A DNA stretch of 64,000 bases from Bacteroidales bacterium (GCA_031553435.1 JAVBLQ010000033.1:846-64845); one strand, 5' to 3'; positions 31,571-60,755 are shown, counted from the stretch's first letter. The notes: generated from the letters alone by a model not told the origin. Numbers and translations are program-made.

Positions 31571-31578
31571 TATGTTTG
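31571..31578 (+). promoter_or_regulatory. candidate -7 promoter box TATGTTTG
   Basis: TAnnTTTG match 116 nt upstream of the hdrC-like start. Confidence 0.3.
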
Positions 31579-31693: not shown

Positions 31694-32245
31694 ATGATAA
31701 AAACACATTCTCAATCAACTCTCAGTGGTCAAATCAGCGAGTCCGTGTGCGTACACAGTTCCCATTGCTATCAATGCGGGAAGTGTTCGGCGGGTTGTCC
31801 TTTGGCTCAGGATATGGATTACACGTCAAGTATGGTAATGCGGATGTTACAGGTAGAAGATGAGGCTATTGACAAAGAACTGCTTCAGTCACAGTCAATC
31901 TGGCTTTGTGCTTCCTGCGAAATGTGCATATCCCGTTGTCCGATGTCTGTCGACATACCAAAAATAATGGATTTTCTTCGTCAGAAATCTATTGAAAAAG
32001 GACTGCAAAATAAAAATGCAGCGAAAAATATCATACCTTTTCATCGTTCTTTTCTGGATATGATCCGTCTCACCGGTCGTTCTTATGAAATCGGATTAGT
32101 GGCTGATTATAAACTTCGAAGCAAAAATCTGTTTCAGGATTTGACATTGGCTCCTAAAATGTTTTTGAAAGGAAAATTGTCACTCATCCCGGAAAATGTG
32201 AAGGACAAGAAGAATATATCAATGATTTTTAAAAAGACTAAATAG
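31694..32245 (+). CDS. hdrC: heterodisulfide reductase subunit C-like (2x[4Fe-4S])
   Basis: 183 aa with two ferredoxin motifs, CYQCGKCSAGCP and CASCEMCISRCP. Confidence 0.8.
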   Translation: MIKTHSQSTLSGQISESVCVHSSHCYQCGKCSAGCPLAQDMDYTSSMVMRMLQVEDEAIDKELLQSQSIWLCASCEMCISRCPMSVDIPKIMDFLRQKSIEKGLQNKNAAKNIIPFHRSFLDMIRLTGRSYEIGLVADYKLRSKNLFQDLTLAPKMFLKGKLSLIPENVKDKKNISMIFKKTK

Positions 32246-32329
32246 TTTTACGTTTTGTGTTTTACGTTATACGTTGGCTTACGCACAACAAAACGTAAAA
32301 CGTAAAACGTAAAACGTACCACGTATAAC
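32245..32329. repeat. intercistronic hairpin element, AAACGT word family, loop GCTTACGCAC
   Basis: gttttacgttttgtgttttacgttatacgt / aaaacgtaaaacgtaaaacgtaaaacgtaccacgtataac, with the loop motif at 32277-32286. Confidence 0.85.
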
Positions 32330-32334
32330 TTGTT

Positions 32335-33204
32335 ATGAAAGAAACATTAGGATTTTACCCTGGTTGCTCACTGGAAGGAACTGCACGAGAATACTCCGAA
32401 TCCGTTATTTCACTTGCTAAAGCTTTCGATATAGAGCTCCAACAGGTACCTGACTGGAATTGTTGTGGAGCAACAGCCGCGCATAATTTAAACAAGGTGT
32501 TGTCACTTGCATTGCCTGCCCGTATTTTGGCTTTGGCTGAGAAAGCAGGAATGAAAGAAATTCTGGTTCCTTGCGCTGCCTGTTCTAACCGTTTACTGGT
32601 CACTCAACATGAATTGTTTGAAAATCAGAAGCTTAAAAAGGACGTGGAAGCTGCAATGGAAATGACTTTATCGGCTCCCATCCGTATCTTAAATGTAATC
32701 CAGTTTATACAAGAACATATTTTATCTGAGCTACCGGAGAAAATCAAAACTCCTTTTGGTAAGAAAACGGCTTGTTATTACGGATGCTTGCTGGTACGCC
32801 CCCATGAAATATTGCAATTTGATCGTTTAGAAGATCCGCAATCAATGGATGAGGTAATGAAAATTTTAGGTTCGGATACCATCGACTGGCCTTTCAAGAC
32901 CGAATGTTGCGGAGCGGGATTATCTGTCAGCCGTACGGATTTGGTAGCCAAATTATCGGGAAAAATAGTAAAAGAAGCAACAGACAGAGGAGCCGAAGCT
33001 ATCATTGTGGCCTGTCCGATGTGTCATGCGAATCTGGATATGCGCCGCTCAGCGATTGATAAATTTATCGGGAAAAAATCAGATATTCCTGTCTTGTATC
33101 TCACACAAGCCATTGGCCTTTCCGTTGGTTTAAGTGAAAAAGAAGTAGGAATTCAAAGACATTTAGTGAAAGTTGACTGGAAAAAATTGACAATGGAAAA
33201 TTGA
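32335..33204 (+). CDS. hdrB: heterodisulfide reductase subunit B-like (two CCG domains)
   Basis: 289 aa. CCG-domain cysteine pattern occurs twice (YPGC...NCCGA...PCAAC and YYGC...ECCGA...ACPMC). Confidence 0.8.
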   Translation: MKETLGFYPGCSLEGTAREYSESVISLAKAFDIELQQVPDWNCCGATAAHNLNKVLSLALPARILALAEKAGMKEILVPCAACSNRLLVTQHELFENQKLKKDVEAAMEMTLSAPIRILNVIQFIQEHILSELPEKIKTPFGKKTACYYGCLLVRPHEILQFDRLEDPQSMDEVMKILGSDTIDWPFKTECCGAGLSVSRTDLVAKLSGKIVKEATDRGAEAIIVACPMCHANLDMRRSAIDKFIGKKSDIPVLYLTQAIGLSVGLSEKEVGIQRHLVKVDWKKLTMEN

Positions 33205-33266
33205 CAATTGAAAATGAATGAATTGATACGATTTTTAATTGTCAATTCTCGATTTTCAATTGTCCA
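33195..33266. repeat. intercistronic hairpin element, GAAAATTGACAATTG word family
   Basis: ggaaaattgacaattgaaaatgaatgaattga pairs with taattgtcaattctcgattttcaattgtcc. The hdrB stop codon (33202-33204) lies inside the left arm. Confidence 0.8.
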
Positions 33267-33277
33267 TTAAAAAAATT

Positions 33278-35278
33278 ATGGCAAGAATTGGAGTTTTTAT
33301 ATGTCATTGCGGCGAAAATATTTCGGCAACCGTCGATTGTCCGAAAGTATCGGATGTCGCTGCAAAATTACCAGGTGTAGTTTACAGCACCGATTATAAA
33401 TATATGTGTTCCGACCCGGGACAATCAAAAATCAAGGACGCTATACTGGAGCATAAGTTGACGGGAGTGGTAGTTTCCGCCTGTTCGCCTCGTATGCACG
33501 AACCCACGTTTCGCAAAGCTTGTGCCGAAGCCGGGTTGAATCCATATCTCTGTGAAATGGCCAATATCCGCGAACATTGTTCCTGGGTACACGAAAAAGG
33601 TGAAGCAACCACTCAAAAGGCAATTGATCTGGTTCGTACTTTGGTAGAAAAGGTAAAGAACAATCATCCGCTTGAACCGATCAAAGTTCCGGTAAATAAA
33701 ACCGCGGTGGTGATTGGTGGTGGAGTGACAGGTATTCAAGCTTCGCTTGATATTGCCAATGCAGGACAAAAAGTAATTTTGGTAGAGCGTGAGCCGTCTA
33801 TCGGTGGAAAAATGGCGGGACTTTCCGAAACTTTCCCTACGCTCGACTGTTCGCAATGTATTCTTACGCCTCGAATGGTAGATGTGGCGCAACACCCCAA
33901 TATTACGCTTCTTACTTGTGCCGAAGTTGAAAGTCTGGATGGATTTATTGGTAACTTCAATGTGCGTATTCGCAAAAAAGCCAAATCGGTAGACGAAAAA
34001 TTGTGTACCGGTTGCGGATTGTGTACTACTAAATGTCCTTCTAAGAAGATTCCAAGTGAATTTGAACAAGGCCTGGCAAACCGTACAGCTATTTATGTGC
34101 CTTTTCCACAAGCTGTTCCAAATAAGCCGGTAATTGATCGTGCGAATTGTACTTATTTCAAAACAGGAAAATGCGGTGTTTGTAAAAAAATCTGCCCGAC
34201 AGGTGCAATTAATTACGAACAAGAAGACGAAATAATCGAAGTAAAAGCAGGCGCATTGGTTCTTGCTACTGGTTTTGACGTAAAAAAAGCTGATTTCTTT
34301 CCCGAATATGGTTACGGAAAATATAAAGACGTGATCAACGGATTACAATTTGAACGTTTGGCTTCGGCTTCCGGACCCACTAAAGGAGAAATTCGTCGTC
34401 CTTCTGACGGTGAAATTCCTAAAAAAGTAGTCTTCCTAGCTTGTGCAGGCTCACGTGATCCGGCTAAGGGAATTCCTTATTGCTCTAAAATCTGTTGTAT
34501 GTACACAGCGAAACACGCTATTCTGTACAAACACAAAGTACATGAAGGAACTCCTTACGTTTTCTACATGGATATCCGTGCTGCCGGCAAAAATTATGAT
34601 GAATTTACGCGCCGCGCCATTGAAGAAGACGGTGCAAAATATATCCGTGGCCGAGTTTCCAATATTTATGAAAAAGACGGAAAACTCATTGTTCGCGGAG
34701 CAGATACTCTGATGGGTGGTAAACCCGTTGAAATTGAAGCGGATATGGTGGTTTTGGCAAGCGCTGCCGTTTCATCCTGCGGCTCGGAAGAATTGGCTCA
34801 AAGACTTCACGTATCTTACGATCCTTATAAATTTTTTGCAGAAGCGCATCCTAAATTGAAACCGGTAGAAACAAACACAGCAGGAATCTTCTTAGCGGGT
34901 GCTTGTCAATCTCCGAAAGATATCCCGGAGTCGGTTTCTGCTGCATCTGGAGCTGCTGCGAAAGTAATCGGTCTGTTCTCAAACAGTGAGTTGACACGCG
35001 AACCGATTGTTGCAAAAGTGAATCGCATGCCTCCTCCTCTCTTCTCTACTTGCATGGGATGTGGAATGTGTGCTCAGATTTGTCCTTATCAAGCCATTGA
35101 TAAAGAAGAAATTAAAGATCGTGGCGGTAATGTGGTAAAAACAATTGCAGCGATCAATCCCGGACTTTGTCAGGGATGCGGAACCTGTGTCGCTTTCTGT
35201 AAATCCAAGTCCATTGATTTGGAAGGATACTCGAACAAACAAGTTTACGAAGAAGTTTTAGCATTACTTAATGAATAA
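33278..35278 (+). CDS. hdrA: heterodisulfide reductase subunit A-like flavo-iron-sulfur protein
   Basis: About 666 aa from MARIGVFICHCGENIS. FAD fold VIGGGVTGIQASLDIA and several ferredoxin motifs (CTGCGLCTTKCP, CGVCKKICP, CMGCGMCAQICP, CQGCGTCVAFC). Confidence 0.85.
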   Translation: MARIGVFICHCGENISATVDCPKVSDVAAKLPGVVYSTDYKYMCSDPGQSKIKDAILEHKLTGVVVSACSPRMHEPTFRKACAEAGLNPYLCEMANIREHCSWVHEKGEATTQKAIDLVRTLVEKVKNNHPLEPIKVPVNKTAVVIGGGVTGIQASLDIANAGQKVILVEREPSIGGKMAGLSETFPTLDCSQCILTPRMVDVAQHPNITLLTCAEVESLDGFIGNFNVRIRKKAKSVDEKLCTGCGLCTTKCPSKKIPSEFEQGLANRTAIYVPFPQAVPNKPVIDRANCTYFKTGKCGVCKKICPTGAINYEQEDEIIEVKAGALVLATGFDVKKADFFPEYGYGKYKDVINGLQFERLASASGPTKGEIRRPSDGEIPKKVVFLACAGSRDPAKGIPYCSKICCMYTAKHAILYKHKVHEGTPYVFYMDIRAAGKNYDEFTRRAIEEDGAKYIRGRVSNIYEKDGKLIVRGADTLMGGKPVEIEADMVVLASAAVSSCGSEELAQRLHVSYDPYKFFAEAHPKLKPVETNTAGIFLAGACQSPKDIPESVSAASGAAAKVIGLFSNSELTREPIVAKVNRMPPPLFSTCMGCGMCAQICPYQAIDKEEIKDRGGNVVKTIAAINPGLCQGCGTCVAFCKSKSIDLEGYSNKQVYEEVLALLNE

Positions 35279-35280
35279 AT

Positions 35281-35357
35281 CAATGTGACAATATGCCAAT
35301 GTGCCAATTTTTTGCGTATTAATTTGACTTATTGGCATATTAGCATATTGGCAAATT
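35281..35357. repeat. intercistronic hairpin element, ATATGCCAAT word family
   Basis: Left 18-mer atatgccaatgtgccaat (35291-35308) pairs with attggcatattagcatattggcaa (35331-35354). Starts 3 nt after the hdrA stop and ends 9 nt before the next start. Confidence 0.85.
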
Positions 35358-35365
35358 AAATAATT

Positions 35366-35812
35366 ATGTCTGAGTTTGAACCAAAAATAGTCGCATTTGT
35401 CTGTAACTGGTGTACTTATGCCGGTGCAGACTTAACAGGTACAAGCCGTATCAAATATTCGCCAAACGTAAAAATCATTCGTTTTCCCTGTACCGGACGG
35501 ATTGATTTCATGTTGCTTATCAAAGCTTTTGCCAATGGAGCCGACGGGATTATCGTATCTGGTTGTCATCCCAATGATTGTCATTACACTTCGGGTAATT
35601 TCCATGCGCGCCGCCGTTGGACAATTTTCCGCTCATTACTTAATTTCATGGGTGTGGAAATCGATCGGATCACATTTACCTGGGTTTCTGCTGCCGAAGG
35701 CGCCAAATGGGCCGAAGTAGTCAACTCAACTGCCGATAAGCTCAAGGCAATGGGGCCTTATGAAAAATATCAAAAAATTGCCAACGAAGTGTGGATAGAA
35801 CAGGAGTTATGA
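35366..35812 (+). CDS. MvhD/FlxD-like hydrogenase iron-sulfur subunit
   Basis: 148 aa. KIVAFVCNWCTYAGADLTG and PCTGRIDFMLLIKAFANGADGIIVSGCHPNDCHY are typical of the methyl-viologen-reducing hydrogenase delta subunit family. Confidence 0.8.
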   Translation: MSEFEPKIVAFVCNWCTYAGADLTGTSRIKYSPNVKIIRFPCTGRIDFMLLIKAFANGADGIIVSGCHPNDCHYTSGNFHARRRWTIFRSLLNFMGVEIDRITFTWVSAAEGAKWAEVVNSTADKLKAMGPYEKYQKIANEVWIEQEL

Positions 35813-35833
35813 ATTAAAAGTGAAAAATGAACA

Positions 35834-36637
35834 ATGAAAAATTTAATTGAGATAGCATCCAAACTCCTGCAATCCGGCGAAGTACAATGTATTGTAGGTT
35901 ATGGTGAAGGTTCCAATGAACGCGTCCGTCCTGCTTTTGCACGCAATGAAGAAGAAGTTTCAAAACTAATTTACGATAAACGTTGCACACAGAATCTGGC
36001 AATGTATCTGTATAAAAGAGAAATTGTCAAATTGGGAAAACCAGCTATTGTTGCCAATATTCACACTTTGCGCGGAATCATTCGTCTGGCTGCCGAAAAG
36101 CAAGTCAAAGACGGAACGCTCATTACTCTTTGTACCAAAGAAAACGGGGAAATTACCGAATGTCACACATTTGAAGAGATAGAAAATTATCTTTCAGGCA
36201 TTGAACATAAACTTAGTGTGGAAGATCAGGCTTTACTGGATAAAATCTCAGCGATGTCGCCCGATGAACGCTGGGCTTTCTGGAAAGTTGAAATGGAAAA
36301 CTGCATCAAATGTTACGCATGCCGTCAGGCTTGTCCGCTTTGTTATTGCAACCAATGTACCGTTGAAAATAATCAACCGCAATGGATTCCGGTTGCTGCC
36401 AGCACGTTAGGTAATTTTGAATGGCATATCATGAGAGCGATGCATCTTTCAGGACGTTGCATTTCGTGCGGACAATGTGCCGATGCATGTCCTGTAAATA
36501 TCCCGATCCACTTGCTGCCTATCAAATTATCCGAAGAAATCAGGGAAGTATATGGAACGGTTTCCGGGGTAAACAGACAGGAAGGTTGTGCAATGTCGAC
36601 ATATCAACCCAATGATAAAGAAGAATTTATAAATTAA
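35834..36637 (+). CDS. 4Fe-4S dicluster protein (FlxC-like)
   Basis: 267 aa with CIKCYACRQACP and CISCGQCADACP motifs. Positioned between the MvhD-like and AsrA-like genes. Confidence 0.6.
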   Translation: MKNLIEIASKLLQSGEVQCIVGYGEGSNERVRPAFARNEEEVSKLIYDKRCTQNLAMYLYKREIVKLGKPAIVANIHTLRGIIRLAAEKQVKDGTLITLCTKENGEITECHTFEEIENYLSGIEHKLSVEDQALLDKISAMSPDERWAFWKVEMENCIKCYACRQACPLCYCNQCTVENNQPQWIPVAASTLGNFEWHIMRAMHLSGRCISCGQCADACPVNIPIHLLPIKLSEEIREVYGTVSGVNRQEGCAMSTYQPNDKEEFIN

Positions 36638-36645
36638 ATAATGTG

Positions 36646-36715
36646 TTAATATGCCAATGTGCCAATAAGTAGGTAATAATTGGCATATTGGCATATTAGA
36701 AAATTGGCATATTAA
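36646..36715. repeat. intercistronic hairpin element, ATATGCCAAT word family
   Basis: atatgccaatgtgccaat (36649-36666) pairs 17/18 (one G-U) with attggcatattggcatat (36679-36696). A third word copy at 36704-36714 ends 2 nt before the ATG at 36717. Confidence 0.85.
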
Positions 36716-36716
36716 A

Positions 36717-37727
36717 ATGGCTAATATAAAATTATTAAGAAAAGAAGCTTACAACAAACTGGTTAATAAGCTTCTTGAAAAAAATAAAATCTACGCACCA
36801 ACCCAACAAGGCAAACGCGTAGGATACCAACGGATCACATCTGCTGAAGAAATTGCCGACGATTTCATCATTCCGGATATGTCGGCCAAATCCATTGTTT
36901 TTCCACGGACAGAAAAATTATTCGGATATACTAAAGATCAGAATGATGTGGAAGTCCAGGATTTTGATATGGAAGCTGTTCCTTACAAGATTGTTTGGGG
37001 AATCCGTCCATGCGATGCGGCAGGCATTCAAAGTCTGGCTGCTATTTTCAACTGGGGTCCGGCCGATCCGATTTTTGCACGCCGTTTGGAATGTACAACT
37101 TTCGTAGGACTTTCCTGTTCAAAAGCTGATGATTATTGCTTTTGTACTTCTTTAGGTGGAGGTCCTGGTAATACCAAAGGATGTGATATTTTACTCACAA
37201 AAACAGATGATGGAGATTTCATCGCTGAAATCCTTACTCCAAAAGGAGACGCAATTTTTGAATCTGCACCTGAATTATTCGAAGATTCGGAGAACTTAGA
37301 TAAAGAAAAATATCTGGCCAATGTTCCCAAACGCTTTGATGATACAAATTTAACTGAACGCATCAATGGTGTTTTTGATACCAATATGTTTGATGAATAT
37401 GCTATGCGTTGTCTGGGTTGTGCGGCTTGTGCCTATGTTTGCCCAGTTTGCGCCTGTTTCGACATTCAGGATGAAACCAAAGGAAGCAAAGGACAACGGA
37501 TACGTACCTGGGATTCCTGCGGAGCTAAATTATTTACTTTACATACTTCGGGACATAATCCGCGTGAAACTCAGGGAGCCCGCTGGCGTCAACGCCTGAT
37601 GCATAAGTTTGCCTATATGCCCGAACGTTTGAGTGTACGTGGCTGCATCGGTTGCGGACGTTGCTCACGCCGTTGCCCGGTCGACATGAACATTGCAGAA
37701 AGTTTAAATAATTTGCCAATTAAATAA
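36717..37727 (+). CDS. AsrA/HydB/FlxB-like iron-sulfur protein
   Basis: 336 aa with CLGCAACAYVCPVCACF and CIGCGRCSRRCP motifs. Size and pattern resemble the anaerobic sulfite reductase A / sulfhydrogenase beta family. Confidence 0.65.
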   Translation: MANIKLLRKEAYNKLVNKLLEKNKIYAPTQQGKRVGYQRITSAEEIADDFIIPDMSAKSIVFPRTEKLFGYTKDQNDVEVQDFDMEAVPYKIVWGIRPCDAAGIQSLAAIFNWGPADPIFARRLECTTFVGLSCSKADDYCFCTSLGGGPGNTKGCDILLTKTDDGDFIAEILTPKGDAIFESAPELFEDSENLDKEKYLANVPKRFDDTNLTERINGVFDTNMFDEYAMRCLGCAACAYVCPVCACFDIQDETKGSKGQRIRTWDSCGAKLFTLHTSGHNPRETQGARWRQRLMHKFAYMPERLSVRGCIGCGRCSRRCPVDMNIAESLNNLPIK

Positions 37728-37773
37728 TTTGCCAATATGCCAATGTTACGAAAAATTGGCACATTGGCATATT
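37710..37773. repeat. intercistronic hairpin element, ATATGCCAAT word family
   Basis: Left words aatttgccaat...tttgccaatatgccaatg overlap the last codons (NNLPIK) and the stop codon. The right arm attggcacattggcatat (37755-37772) is identical to 3271-3288. Loop is ttacgaaaa. Confidence 0.8.
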
Positions 37774-37791
37774 ATCACATTAATTTATTAA

Positions 37792-38637
37792 ATGATTATG
37801 GACGAAAGAAATATATATTTACCTTATAAAATGCGCCTGGCCAAAGTAACAGAAGAAGCGCCCGGCGTCCGCACTTTCCGTTTGGAATTTATGAATCCGG
37901 AAGAAGGAGAAAACTTCAATTTCCGTACCGGACAATTTGCCGAATATTCAGTATTTGGAGAAGGAGAATCAACTTTTTGTATCGCATCTCCACATACCCG
38001 TAAAGGTTATGTAGAATGTACTTTCCGTAGGGCAGGACGGGTGACTTCGGCTTTGTCCAATCTGGAAGAAGGTGCAGTTGTCGGTTTTCGCGGCCCATAT
38101 GGTAATACTTTCCCTATTGATGAATGGAAAGGTAAAAATCTGGTTTTCATTGCCGGAGGAATCGCTTTGCCACCGATGCGCAGCGTAATCTGGTCATGTC
38201 TGGATAATCGTGAGAATTACAAAGATGTAACCATTTTCTATGGAGCGAAAACGGTTGCGGACTTAGTATATAAAGACGAATTGAAAGACTGGGAAGAACG
38301 TCCTGACGTAAATCTTTACACAACAGTTGATCCGGGTGGAGAAACTCCCGATTGGAAAGGTCAGGTAGGATTCGTGCCCATGATCGTGGAAAAATTTGCT
38401 CCTGTAGCCGAAAATACAATTGTTATTGTTTGCGGCCCTCCAATCATGATCAAGAATACTTTCCCTGTATTGAAGAAATTAGGATTTACAGACGAAAACA
38501 TTTATACTACTCTCGAAAACCGGATGAAATGCGGATTCGGGAAATGCGGCAGATGCAATGTCGGAAAAACTTACGTTTGTAAGGACGGACCGGTGTTTAC
38601 TGCTGCGGAATTGGCAGAGCTACCTAACGAATACTAA
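37792..38637 (+). CDS. FAD/NAD(P)-binding oxidoreductase with C-terminal [2Fe-2S] (AsrB/HydG/FlxA/PyrK-like)
   Basis: 281 aa. Ferredoxin-reductase fold (RTGQFAEYS, FIAGGIALPP) and C-terminal CGFGKCGRCNVG cluster motif. Alternative start at 37798. Confidence 0.75.
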   Translation: MIMDERNIYLPYKMRLAKVTEEAPGVRTFRLEFMNPEEGENFNFRTGQFAEYSVFGEGESTFCIASPHTRKGYVECTFRRAGRVTSALSNLEEGAVVGFRGPYGNTFPIDEWKGKNLVFIAGGIALPPMRSVIWSCLDNRENYKDVTIFYGAKTVADLVYKDELKDWEERPDVNLYTTVDPGGETPDWKGQVGFVPMIVEKFAPVAENTIVIVCGPPIMIKNTFPVLKKLGFTDENIYTTLENRMKCGFGKCGRCNVGKTYVCKDGPVFTAAELAELPNEY

Positions 38638-38640
38638 AAA

Positions 38641-38717
38641 GAAAGTGAAAAGTGAAAAATTAAAAGTGAGCTTACGCCCAAAATAACTTTTCACTTTTCA
38701 CTTTCTTTTTCACTTTC
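38641..38717. repeat. intergenic hairpin element, GTGAAAA word family, loop GCTTACGCCC
   Basis: gaaagtgaaaagtgaaaaattaaaagtgag pairs with ttttcacttttcactttctttttcactttc. Loop motif at 38670-38679. Lies between convergent genes and overlaps the stop of the 38710 esterase gene. Confidence 0.85.
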
Positions 38718-40206
38718 TGAACGGAAAGGCCGGAAGGTTATCCCCATTATACAAATTGGCATCAACAGTATTATTCCAAGCATATTTTACAGCTACAGGA
38801 GATTGGATATCGGGATGATAAACAATTAGTTTGTTGTTTTCTACTTTTGCCAGGGCCGGTAGAAAATTAGTTCCATCTGTTGAAATAAAGATGTCGTTTA
38901 ATTTCTCTCCCTTGATATATAATCCCTTATTATTTTCAAAACTAATCACTAAAGTTCCGCTTTGTTGTTTCATACTTTTAAAAATAGGCGATGTAAAAGG
39001 AACATCTTTGAAGTGATACACTTTACTCAAAGCCAGAAAAGAAAAACGTTCGCCGTAAGGAAATTTATTGACCGGATGAACATCTTTTAAATCTCCCGAA
39101 TCAATCGAACAGAAGACGTAGGTGTTCTTCAATTTTCGTTGATTTAGTTGCGCCTCTCGTAAAATCGATGCATTATCGGATGATGCATAATCATAAGCCG
39201 TCAGTTGCCCGATCAATGCATCAAAATCTTCTCCCCAAGCTTTGCGCCAGGATTGAATCAGGGTATTCAGTTGATGCTCATATTCATCGGCGAAATTTAC
39301 ATTGGATGTTCCCTGATACCAAAGGATTCCTGTAAGTGCATACGGAATACATGGAGCAATCATACCATTATATAAGACACCGGGTTTGCGATGCGGACGA
39401 TTGATAGCGATCAAGCCCTGCGGTTCTTGCGGCCTTTTCCTTTTAATACCATTGATACTATCGGTTTTCCAACGTAATTTTTCGTTTTCGTAATTCAGGC
39501 TATCTGTTTTATAAGAGATCAGCCAGTTGTTCCAGCGTTCGATCGGCTTTTGCAGAAGCGTATCCGATTGTTGGACTGTATCCGAAATCCAGGCTTCGAT
39601 ACCTGTTCCTCCCCAGGAAGCATTGATCAATCCGATGGGTACATGTAATTTTTCCTGCAGTTGAACAGCGAAATAGTAAGTCATCGCTGAAAAACCGGCA
39701 GCAGTTTCTTTTGAGCAGATCTTCCAGGAAGTGTTGGGAGCGAAGTTTTCCTGAATTTGTTCGCAGACCTGCCTTTGTACTTTGAACAGTCTGATTGTGG
39801 GATGATTATTCGCATCTTCCAAAGCTGTTTTTGCCTGTTTGTCGCGTTTCAATGTAAACTCCATGTTTGATTGTCCGGAACTTAGCCAAACTTCTCCGAT
39901 CAATACATCGGTCAACGTTACTGTATTTTTTCCTTTGATAATTACTTCATAAGGACCTCCGGCGACAGGTGTTTTGATGTTTATCTTCCAATCTCCTTTC
40001 AAATCGCTTATCGTGGAATATGTCTTTTTGTTCCAACTGGTGTAGATGGAGATTGGAGTTCCGGCGTCTTCTTTTCCCCAGAGAGGCACCGAGCCTTTTT
40101 GTTTCAGCACCATGTGATTTCCGATGATGGCCGGTAATTGAATATCGGCAGACATGGAAAAGTTGGAGAAGATAATGATTGTAAACAGAAGTATGATTTT
40201 CTTCAT
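38710..40206 (-). CDS. sialate O-acetylesterase-like (SASA/DUF303) carbohydrate esterase
   Basis: 498 aa with a signal peptide. GEVWLSSGQSNME serine block and WYQGTSN block are typical of SASA-family acetylesterases. Confidence 0.75.
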   Translation of the reverse strand: MKKIILLFTIIIFSNFSMSADIQLPAIIGNHMVLKQKGSVPLWGKEDAGTPISIYTSWNKKTYSTISDLKGDWKINIKTPVAGGPYEVIIKGKNTVTLTDVLIGEVWLSSGQSNMEFTLKRDKQAKTALEDANNHPTIRLFKVQRQVCEQIQENFAPNTSWKICSKETAAGFSAMTYYFAVQLQEKLHVPIGLINASWGGTGIEAWISDTVQQSDTLLQKPIERWNNWLISYKTDSLNYENEKLRWKTDSINGIKRKRPQEPQGLIAINRPHRKPGVLYNGMIAPCIPYALTGILWYQGTSNVNFADEYEHQLNTLIQSWRKAWGEDFDALIGQLTAYDYASSDNASILREAQLNQRKLKNTYVFCSIDSGDLKDVHPVNKFPYGERFSFLALSKVYHFKDVPFTSPIFKSMKQQSGTLVISFENNKGLYIKGEKLNDIFISTDGTNFLPALAKVENNKLIVYHPDIQSPVAVKYAWNNTVDANLYNGDNLPAFPFRK

Positions 40207-60630: not shown

Positions 60631-60755
60631 TGAACACTTTTGGGTGCAAAGGTGCACGGTGCAGGGTGCACGAATTGCTTACGCCTGATAGTGCACTACA
60701 TCTGATAAACCGACCGTGCACCGTGCACCGTGTACCGTGCACCCAAAAACATTCA
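60631..60755. repeat. intercistronic hairpin element, GTGCACC/GTGTACC word family, loop GCTTACGCCT
   Basis: tgaacacttttgggtgcaaaggtgcacggtgcagggtgcacg pairs with cgtgcaccgtgcaccgtgtaccgtgcacccaaaaacattca. Loop motif at 60677-60686. Confidence 0.85.

Follow-up and report, generated by a model that had tools for sequence, protein, structure and literature searches.

Are the strong hairpins that separate the genes of a seven-subunit redox complex dedicated controls of subunit output, or are they passengers that have settled between those genes? The question is raised by the hdr/flx operon found in a 64,000-nt stretch of DNA from a Bacteroidales bacterium (GCA_031553435.1, JAVBLQ010000033.1:846-64845; hereafter the window), in which hairpins of about -23 to -33 kcal/mol (RNAfold) fill five of the six gaps of the string hdrC-hdrB-hdrA-mvhD(flxD)-flxC-flxB-flxA. 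An earlier note, made from the sequence of the window, had proposed that these hairpins set subunit stoichiometry. The analysis reported here covered the genome to which the window belongs (G000, a metagenome-assembled genome (MAG) of 3.31 Mb in 148 contigs, the window lying on contig C116) together with its relatives, the closest genomes compared being G002, G009, G010 and G004/L001, all of the same family. It points to another answer, namely that the five hairpins are probably gene-less copies of dispersed, lineage-expanded palindromic repeats, which were inserted at tight junctions and spread locally, with any effects on expression as by-products.

In terms of mechanism, repeat elements with arms made of tandem 7- or 8-nt words would insert precisely in the space from one stop codon to the following start codon, and their targets in hdr/flx would have been junctions that ancestrally overlapped or were only a few nucleotides long. 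Four of the insertions would be lineage-specific and the one at hdrA-mvhD common to a sister genus; in three cases (hdrB, flxC and flxB) the upstream gene would have had its final codons replaced, and one word family, AATRTGCC, would next have moved into adjacent junctions of the same operon. The hairpins would then be transcribed within the polycistronic mRNA and read through, the expression effects (a lost stop/start overlap coupling and a moderately lower start-site accessibility) would be by-products of insertion, and duplexes of 20-29 bp could be cut by RNase III or could stop 3' exonucleases.

Hairpins made of repeated words

Folding was done with RNAfold, with z-scores calculated against dinucleotide shuffles, arms were located by inverted-repeat search, and word periods were obtained with Tandem Repeats Finder (TRF). 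Folding and inverted repeats both confirm that five of the six gaps hold a strong hairpin (Table 1), and the hairpins run, as the earlier note had described, from the stop codon to just before the next ATG, starting at or inside the stop and ending 2-19 nt short of the start. The five gaps are only 64-89 nt long and are wholly taken up by the element, and 18 of the 19 inverted repeats of at least 14 nt within 32200-38750 fall in gaps. The hdrC-hdrB hairpin (H1) has arms of 24 nt with 92% complementarity (-33.0 kcal/mol, z -3.4), composed of period-7 AAAACGT/GTTTTAC words, with GGCTTACGCAC in the loop; it reaches from the final base of the TAG stop to 19 nt 5' of ATG 32335. The arms of the hdrB-hdrA hairpin (H2), of 31 nt and 87% complementarity (-29.1 kcal/mol, z -5.4), are made of period-7 AATTGAC/AATGGAA words, the 5' arm containing the TGA stop at 33202-33204 and the outer pairs finishing 11 nt before ATG 33278. 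The remaining three share period-8 AATRTGCC words: the hdrA-mvhD hairpin (H3), the weakest by z-score (-24.0 kcal/mol, z -2.4, with 5 of 200 shuffles equally stable), whose core stem finishes 15 nt before ATG 35366; the flxC-flxB hairpin (H4), with a perfect 20-bp core at 36647-36666/36679-36698 (-32.6 kcal/mol, z -6.0), which extends from 1 nt past the stop to 2 nt short of ATG 36717; and the flxB-flxA hairpin (H5; -22.8 kcal/mol, z -3.1), whose 5' arm includes the TAA stop at 37725-37727. All five loops measure 12-30 nt. The word copy at 36704-36714, placed by the earlier note 2 nt before ATG 36717, is exact, and the arrays that it described are real; the unit lengths had to be revised, to 7 nt in H1 (AAAACGT) and H2 and to 8 nt in H3-H5, the 10-mer ATATGCCAAT being the AATRTGCC unit plus a 2-nt overlap.

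The sixth gap, mvhD-flxC (21 nt), gave no fold with RNAfold (0 kcal/mol), and a one-armed period-7 array of 4.4 copies of AATGAAA spans it together with the start of flxC. A hairpin of the same style occupies the convergent gap after flxA, with 27-nt arms of 96% complementarity made of period-7 AAAGTGA words, the loop GCTTACGCCC, an A-rich 5' end and a T-rich 3' end, and it likely marks the end of the transcript. Rfam returned no hit at the gathering score, only sub-threshold models of eukaryotic microRNA precursors, i.e., of generic long hairpins.

Dispersed copies and their arrival at the junctions

Hairpins of this kind are not a peculiarity of hdr/flx. With a criterion of at least 14 matched pairs across the 3.31-Mb assembly, and with in-house gene calls (2590 genes) for the gap statistics, 586 hairpins were found in G000, 433 of them in gene gaps, where chance would give roughly 13; the intergenic count of 378 compares with 8-16 in Markov-1 simulations, an excess of about 29-fold. 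Arms are clearly periodic in 186 of the 586, with a period of 7 in 159 of those, and the word families, which include GTTACRR, AATTGAA/AATGGAA, AATTAAG, GGTGCAC and ACGTAAA, number dozens in all. The hairpins stand in 14% of co-directional gaps (263 of 1886), 36% of convergent gaps (98 of 276) and 20% of divergent gaps (55 of 280), and since the co-directional medians are 8 nt between stop and hairpin and 24 nt between hairpin and following start, the geometry seen in hdr/flx is the norm of the class. The arms of H1 with the loop TTGGCTTACGCACAACAA recur in at least nine copies elsewhere, on either strand, and 57 hairpins whose arm words are unrelated have in common the loop core GCTTRYGC (opposite strand GCRYAAGC). 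Relative to transcription this core shows no preferred orientation in co-directional gaps (11 sense vs 16 antisense), and the stems show no excess of G.U pairs on the sense strand (192 on sense vs 190 only on antisense, as A.C); neither comparison gives a sign of selection at the RNA level. Furthermore, GTTACNN arrays number 256 in G000, 28 in G005 and at most 10 (non-zero controls) in the other genomes of the family, and AATRTGCC arrays 32 in G000, 28 in G010 and 0-6 elsewhere; such patchy families and lineage-specific bursts fit expanding repeats and not conserved regulators.

One of these families is represented in the window outside hdr/flx: GGTGCAC words belong to a conserved element of about 105-115 nt, located at window positions 60651-60743 (C116:61496-61588) and on at least 12 other contigs, in both orientations. 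Its termini are TTTTGGGTGCAC...GTGCACCCAAAA, GCTTACGCC lies in its asymmetric loop, which is conserved and measures about 43 nt, and it looks like a classical miniature inverted-repeat transposable element (MITE).

The relatives date the arrival of the hairpins. The seven-gene order is common to about 35 Bacteroidales relatives, and most junctions in a set of about 30 loci of the order (HdrA 74-89% identical) are 4-nt overlaps or gaps of 1-20 nt. The gaps in G009 (HdrA 94% identical) measure -4, 4, 88, -1, 12 and -4 nt, and those in G010 5, 4, 92, 1, 4 and 1 nt; G002 has tight junctions everywhere except at hdrC-hdrB (65 nt), and G004/L001 are tight save for a peptidase-like gene at hdrA-mvhD and a one-armed AATTAAG array 5' of flxA. 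G009, G010, G002 and G004 all lack four of the five hairpins. The comparison with hairpin-free orthologous operons that the earlier note had suggested as a check yields tight junctions for those four, H3 being shared with G009. H1 is absent from G009, G010, G004 and most others, where the junction is a -4 nt overlap or 5 nt. In the junction alignment, HdrB of the relatives ends in ...RHLVRVKE*, followed by a 4-nt gap, and here it ends in ...RHLVKVDWKKLTMEN*, the 5' arm of H2 encoding the new tail DWKKLTMEN and the stop codon. The flxC-flxB gap of the relatives is 1-12 nt, and the final FlxC codon has changed from G to N in G000; FlxB has gained ...PIK*, with both tail and stop codon encoded by the 5' arm of H5; and mvhD-flxC ranges in relatives from an overlap of 8 nt to a 2-nt gap. 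The 88-nt gap of G009 at hdrA-mvhD holds an AATRTGCC-family hairpin, at the same junction as H3; the corresponding gap of G010 holds a hairpin of other words (GTTAAGA), and G014 has other word hairpins in its hdrC-hdrB and flxB-flxA gaps. Across Bacteroidales, hdrA-mvhD and flxB-flxA are recurrent expansion sites. Dispersed copies at hundreds of junctions, together with recent insertion, make it unlikely that the hairpins are purpose-built subunit controls.

Other kinds of material also occur at these junctions. The peptidase-like gene between hdrA and mvhD of the closest named relative (Bacteroidales MAG EPI_MAG_00006, L001:6851-8345) encodes a secreted product of 494 aa and is flanked by spacers of 7 nt and 3 nt. 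Two strongly reduced genomes of the same family (G007 and G016, 1.0-1.2 Mb), as well as L085, retain hdr/flx genes, and the gaps of G007 are long without word arrays (433 nt at hdrB-hdrA, 248 nt at hdrA-mvhD). The hdrA-mvhD gap of Trichlorobacter thiogenes (L057:7999-8789) contains a gene for an IS200-like Y1 transposase (PF01797), with CAGAGTC/GCAGAGA-type words on its flanks.

That one family should account for three hairpins of a single operon calls for an explanation of its own. The AATRTGCC family comprises about 23 hairpins genome-wide, some 5% of hairpin-bearing gaps, and supplies three of the five in hdr/flx (binomial P ~1.5e-3), and H3-H5 are one another's nearest relatives among the 23 members (ranks 1,2 / 1,2 / 1,3), by small score margins. 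On the genome scale, 124 pairs of hairpins are separated by less than 1.5 kb, and 12 of these pairs have arm words in common vs 4.2 expected; none of 1000 permutations reaches 12. Both the nearest-relative ranks and this threefold word sharing between neighbours support the local spread that the earlier note had suspected from three paralogous hairpins. Palindromic repeats resembling CRISPR arrays, TTGCAGAACTTCTGCAAAC.. and TTGCGACATTGTCGCAAAC.., with a spacing of 82 nt (C6:480-644, C23:2432-2514, C32:41-123 and C123:2083-2165), were excluded from the neighbour statistics. A second case of local spread is the leu operon at C128:24365-26927 (leuA, leuC, leuD and a second LeuA-like gene), where AATRTGCC-family elements stand at three consecutive junctions.

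If these hairpins are gene-less, what would the gene-bearing form be? G000 contains 13 matches to PF05635, a four-helix-bundle family described as '23S rRNA IVS protein', where IVS stands for intervening sequence, and 10 loci lie above the Pfam cut-off. All ten are bracketed by inverted word arrays of families that also form gene-less hairpins, and all ten genes stand immediately upstream of, and co-oriented with, the next gene. One of them (119 aa), between leuC and leuD, has AATRTGCC-type arms, and among the relatives array-bracketed PF05635 genes stand between hdrA and mvhD in L018 and between flxB and flxA in L022. The five hdr/flx hairpins, with loops of 12-30 nt, hold no PF05635 open reading frame (ORF); since the same inverted arrays enclose a PF05635 gene elsewhere, the hdr/flx hairpins look like an empty cassette, and to judge from their arms they are probably the empty form of the PF05635 cassettes. 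A wider proposal can only be offered tentatively, as a possibility that we would not yet favour: word-array hairpins and PF05635 cassettes might form a single self-propagating system that colonises stop/start junctions of transcribed operons and copies itself by preference to adjacent junctions within one transcript. Two operons would have been caught mid-spread, hdr/flx with its five hairpins and a half-array, and leu with its three elements, of which one is still gene-bearing; the insertions would be tolerated as upstream translation melts the 5' arm and thereby frees the downstream start.

Several points weigh against reading the hdr/flx hairpins as mere insertions. None of the 503 six-gap windows of the genome has more than the five filled gaps of hdr/flx (binomial P 2.8e-4 per window), and about 0.14 such windows would be expected genome-wide, so that hdr/flx is the extreme of its genome yet only a mild outlier; these gap statistics, moreover, depend on a crude gene caller. 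The 3' arm of H3 and its flank are identical to G009 at 35 of 37 positions, while fourfold-type third positions between G000 and G009 are only 32-51% identical, i.e., saturated. Such identity despite saturation implies that the insertion is old and has been retained, or else that the same subfamily went into this junction a second time, and unlinked copies within G000 can also have near-identical 3' arms; on the aligned sequences orthology of H3 with the G009 hairpin is favoured, and its conservation could mean purifying selection, hence function, at hdrA-mvhD only. The 5' arm has diverged between the two genomes with no clear compensatory changes, so that covariation lends no support. In addition, no transposase, convincing target-site duplication, other mobility machinery or REP-associated tyrosine transposase (RAYT; REP, repetitive extragenic palindromic) was found, and the co-transcription, read-through and processing of the hairpins are all inferred.

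Probable read-through and rival readings

That the hairpins are true terminators, with a promoter of its own for each gene or gene pair and a cluster that is not one operon, is very improbable. The class is indeed commonest in convergent gaps (36%), with slightly more T past the stem there, but none of the five hdr/flx hairpins is followed by a U-tract (at least six T in the 8 nt past the stem; genome-wide, 3% in co-directional and 6% in convergent gaps), while the terminators of Bacteroidota are reported to be near-canonical (PMC13613805). The 64-89-nt gaps are fully occupied by the element, and a consensus scan found no copy of the Bacteroidetes -7 motif TAnnTTTG in the six gaps, which speaks against the separate promoters that the earlier note had named as a way in which its reading could fail. 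The same class also sits within ribosomal-protein clusters: the S10/spc cluster at C140:35217-44674 carries six hairpins (fusA-S10, S10-L3, L23-L2, L14-L24, S14-S8 and before L15), and since this cluster must be read through, the hdr/flx hairpins are likely read through as well. The terminator reading was rejected on the missing U-tracts and on the hairpins inside S10/spc clusters, and the argument of the earlier note against efficient terminators holds up. As for the operon's own promoter, the sole TAnnTTTG in non-coding DNA of the hdr/flx stretch (consensus scan) is a -7-type motif at 31571, 123 nt 5' of the hdrC ATG, which is a candidate.

More has to be weighed in the case of the proposal that the hairpins are selected RNA elements setting Hdr/Flx stoichiometry, be it by partial termination, by selective processing and stabilisation or by occlusion of start sites. 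Strong stems do stand at cistron 3' ends, there is a precedent in which stem-loop energy sets transcript ratios (PMC4423207), the 3' arm of the hdrA-mvhD hairpin is conserved between genera, and the hdrA-mvhD and flxB-flxA junctions have been repeatedly expanded in other Bacteroidales. Moreover, the five starts that follow a hairpin are predicted to be less accessible (18th-55th genome percentile, -18..+10 window) than those of hdrC and flxC (94th-95th percentile), a moderate effect and not the start-site occlusion that the earlier note had considered. Nonetheless, the nearest relatives make the same complex with tight junctions and without four of the five hairpins, and the same junction is taken by different word families, or even by whole genes, in different relatives. 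The elements are generic repeats that occur in divergent gaps too, with random loop orientation and no excess of G.U on the sense strand, and the nuo operon has none of them. Control of stoichiometry as an evolved function, which the earlier note had put forward, is unlikely on these grounds, and any effect of the hairpins on stoichiometry is most likely a by-product of insertion. The absence of such hairpins from nuo also means that operons encoding complexes are not a preferred habitat; enrichment in them had been considered as a candidate and was ruled out by the zero in nuo.

A different role was considered for the arrays themselves, which might be sites for a trans-acting protein on junction RNA or DNA (a PF05635 pentamer or a single-strand-binding protein of Csp/S1 type being the candidates), with the hairpin form secondary. 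The one-armed arrays in the mvhD-flxC gap and in the flxB-flxA gap of L001 would suit it, as would the fact that the arrays finish at start codons, as TAACTGA arrays do (PMC4679880), and that the PF05635 genes of G000 are always array-flanked. There are, however, dozens of unrelated words against only about ten PF05635 genes, the sites are putative, and the arms are complementary far more often than independent sites would require, all of which makes this role quite improbable, more so than control of stoichiometry.

Under the favoured reading of the hairpins as inserted repeats, what consequences could insertion have had? G000 encodes RNase III (rnc), and stems of 20-29 bp are predicted to be sufficiently long as its substrates. 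A ribosome that terminates at the stop codon, where the 5' arm begins, should melt that arm, and some of the coupling could, speculatively, be kept in this way. The locus advises caution against taking strong intercistronic hairpins for dedicated regulators, since here they appear to be passengers whose arrival is dated by relatives, and it offers a natural experiment, in which translationally coupled junctions of a seven-subunit redox complex have been replaced in succession by structured spacers of 64-89 nt and close, hairpin-free relatives serve as controls. It also adds evidence for local spread and for the long persistence of one copy, as well as for gene-less heptamer/octamer hairpins and PF05635 cassettes as two forms of one element. 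The operon is preceded by uxuA on the minus strand and followed by a convergent esterase gene.

Table 1. Genes, hairpins and arrays of the hdr/flx locus (window coordinates)
Feature	Position	Strand	Basis
hdr/flx gene string hdrC-hdrB-hdrA-mvhD(flxD)-flxC-flxB-flxA	31694..38637	+	Pfam domains; gene order conserved
hdrC	31694-32245	+	Pfam
H1, hdrC-hdrB hairpin	32245-32315	+	RNAfold, inverted repeats, TRF
hdrB (CCG domains)	32335-33204	+	Pfam
H2, hdrB-hdrA hairpin	33185-33261 (element to 33268)	+	RNAfold, inverted repeats, TRF
hdrA	33278-35278	+	Pfam
H3, hdrA-mvhD hairpin	35281-35350	+	RNAfold, inverted repeats, TRF
mvhD/flxD	35366-35812	+	Pfam
One-armed period-7 array (AATGAAA)	35812..35842	+	TRF
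flxC, Fe-S protein	35834-36637	+	Pfam
H4, flxC-flxB hairpin	36639-36714	+	RNAfold, inverted repeats, TRF
flxB, Fe-S protein	36717-37727	+	Pfam
H5, flxB-flxA hairpin	37718-37789	+	RNAfold, inverted repeats, TRF
flxA, FAD/NAD protein	37792-38637	+	Pfam
Same-style hairpin, convergent gap after flxA	38636..38710	.	Inverted repeats

Relation to known repeat systems

The closest general likeness is to the REP sequences and bacterial interspersed mosaic elements (BIMEs) of Enterobacteria and Pseudomonas, which are, as here, short and imperfectly palindromic, number in the hundreds and lie in extragenic and intercistronic DNA just past stop codons, and which are transcribed with the operon. REP elements reportedly stabilise upstream mRNA segments, and one that lies within about 15 nt of a stop codon reportedly reduces the expression of the gene before it (Newbury/Higgins 1987; Liang, Rudd and Deutscher 2015). 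Unlike REP, the present elements have arms of tandem 7/8-nt words in many unrelated families, with no single conserved sequence; instead of a fixed head only the loop core GCTTRYGC is shared, by the 57 hairpins mentioned above, and the hdr/flx insertions run into coding sequences and alter their ends. A search for the RAYT (Y1, PF01797) gave no match in G000, although control genomes match, and assignment to REP or to REP doublets forming hairpins (REPINs) was dropped for this absence. As regards MITEs, the arms here are inverted arrays, and the junction alignments reveal no clear duplication by eye, short target-site duplications being unreadable in flanks that are AT-rich; no autonomous relative encoding a transposase was found, the sole cargo between arms being PF05635, which is not a known transposase.

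Tandem heptamers lead to another group of comparisons. Intergenic heptamer arrays have been described with GGGAATC in Xanthomonas and GGGGAYT in Nostoc (PMC4692102), and TAACTGA arrays of Beggiatoaceae, cyanobacteria and Bacteroidetes finish just before start codons (PMC4679880). Like these and the cyanobacterial short tandemly repeated repetitive (STRR) sequences, the present arrays are tandem heptamers between co-directional ORFs near stop and start; a period of 7, as in STRR-like arrays, is seen in H1, H2, the terminal hairpin and the sixth gap, and H3-H5 are a period-8 variant. The GGGAATC arrays of Xanthomonas also form inverted pairs, and heptamer arrays are found inside operons such as pec. 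The published arrays, however, have one word per genome, and G-quadruplex or translational-regulator roles have been proposed for them, whereas here many AT-rich words occur, mostly as hairpins, with a link to PF05635 and recent insertion, and three of the five have an 8-nt unit. In the accessible literature, no explanation of the element's function or mobility was found.

With the cip-cel operon of Clostridium cellulolyticum, where operon-specific stem-loops were shown to set transcript ratios (PMC4423207) in what is known as selective RNA processing and stabilisation, the hdr/flx case shares the presence of intercistronic stem-loops in an operon for a multi-subunit complex. It differs in that its hairpins are generic repeats, known from sequence alone, four of which are missing from the nearest relatives, only the one at hdrA-mvhD being retained with the operon elsewhere, in G009. 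A nearer parallel in structure is given by the ORF-bearing 23S IVS of Coxiella and Leptospira: that of Coxiella has a 28-bp stem, tandem heptamers, an S23p ORF and excision by RNase III (PMC4990558). The features in common are an inverted-repeat stem of tandem heptamers and PF05635/S23p as the associated cargo, and the stem of the IVS, when transcribed, is a substrate of RNase III (PMC4990558), as the stems here may be; the arms here are of the same kind, with a unit of 8 nt instead of 7 in H3-H5. Unlike the 23S IVS, the hdr/flx elements lie between protein-coding cistrons and not in rRNA helices, and their loops of 12-30 nt carry no ORF. Taken against all of these systems, the hdr/flx hairpins are a variant of the known intercistronic palindromic repeats, REP-like and without RAYT, whose arms are heptamer or octamer arrays.

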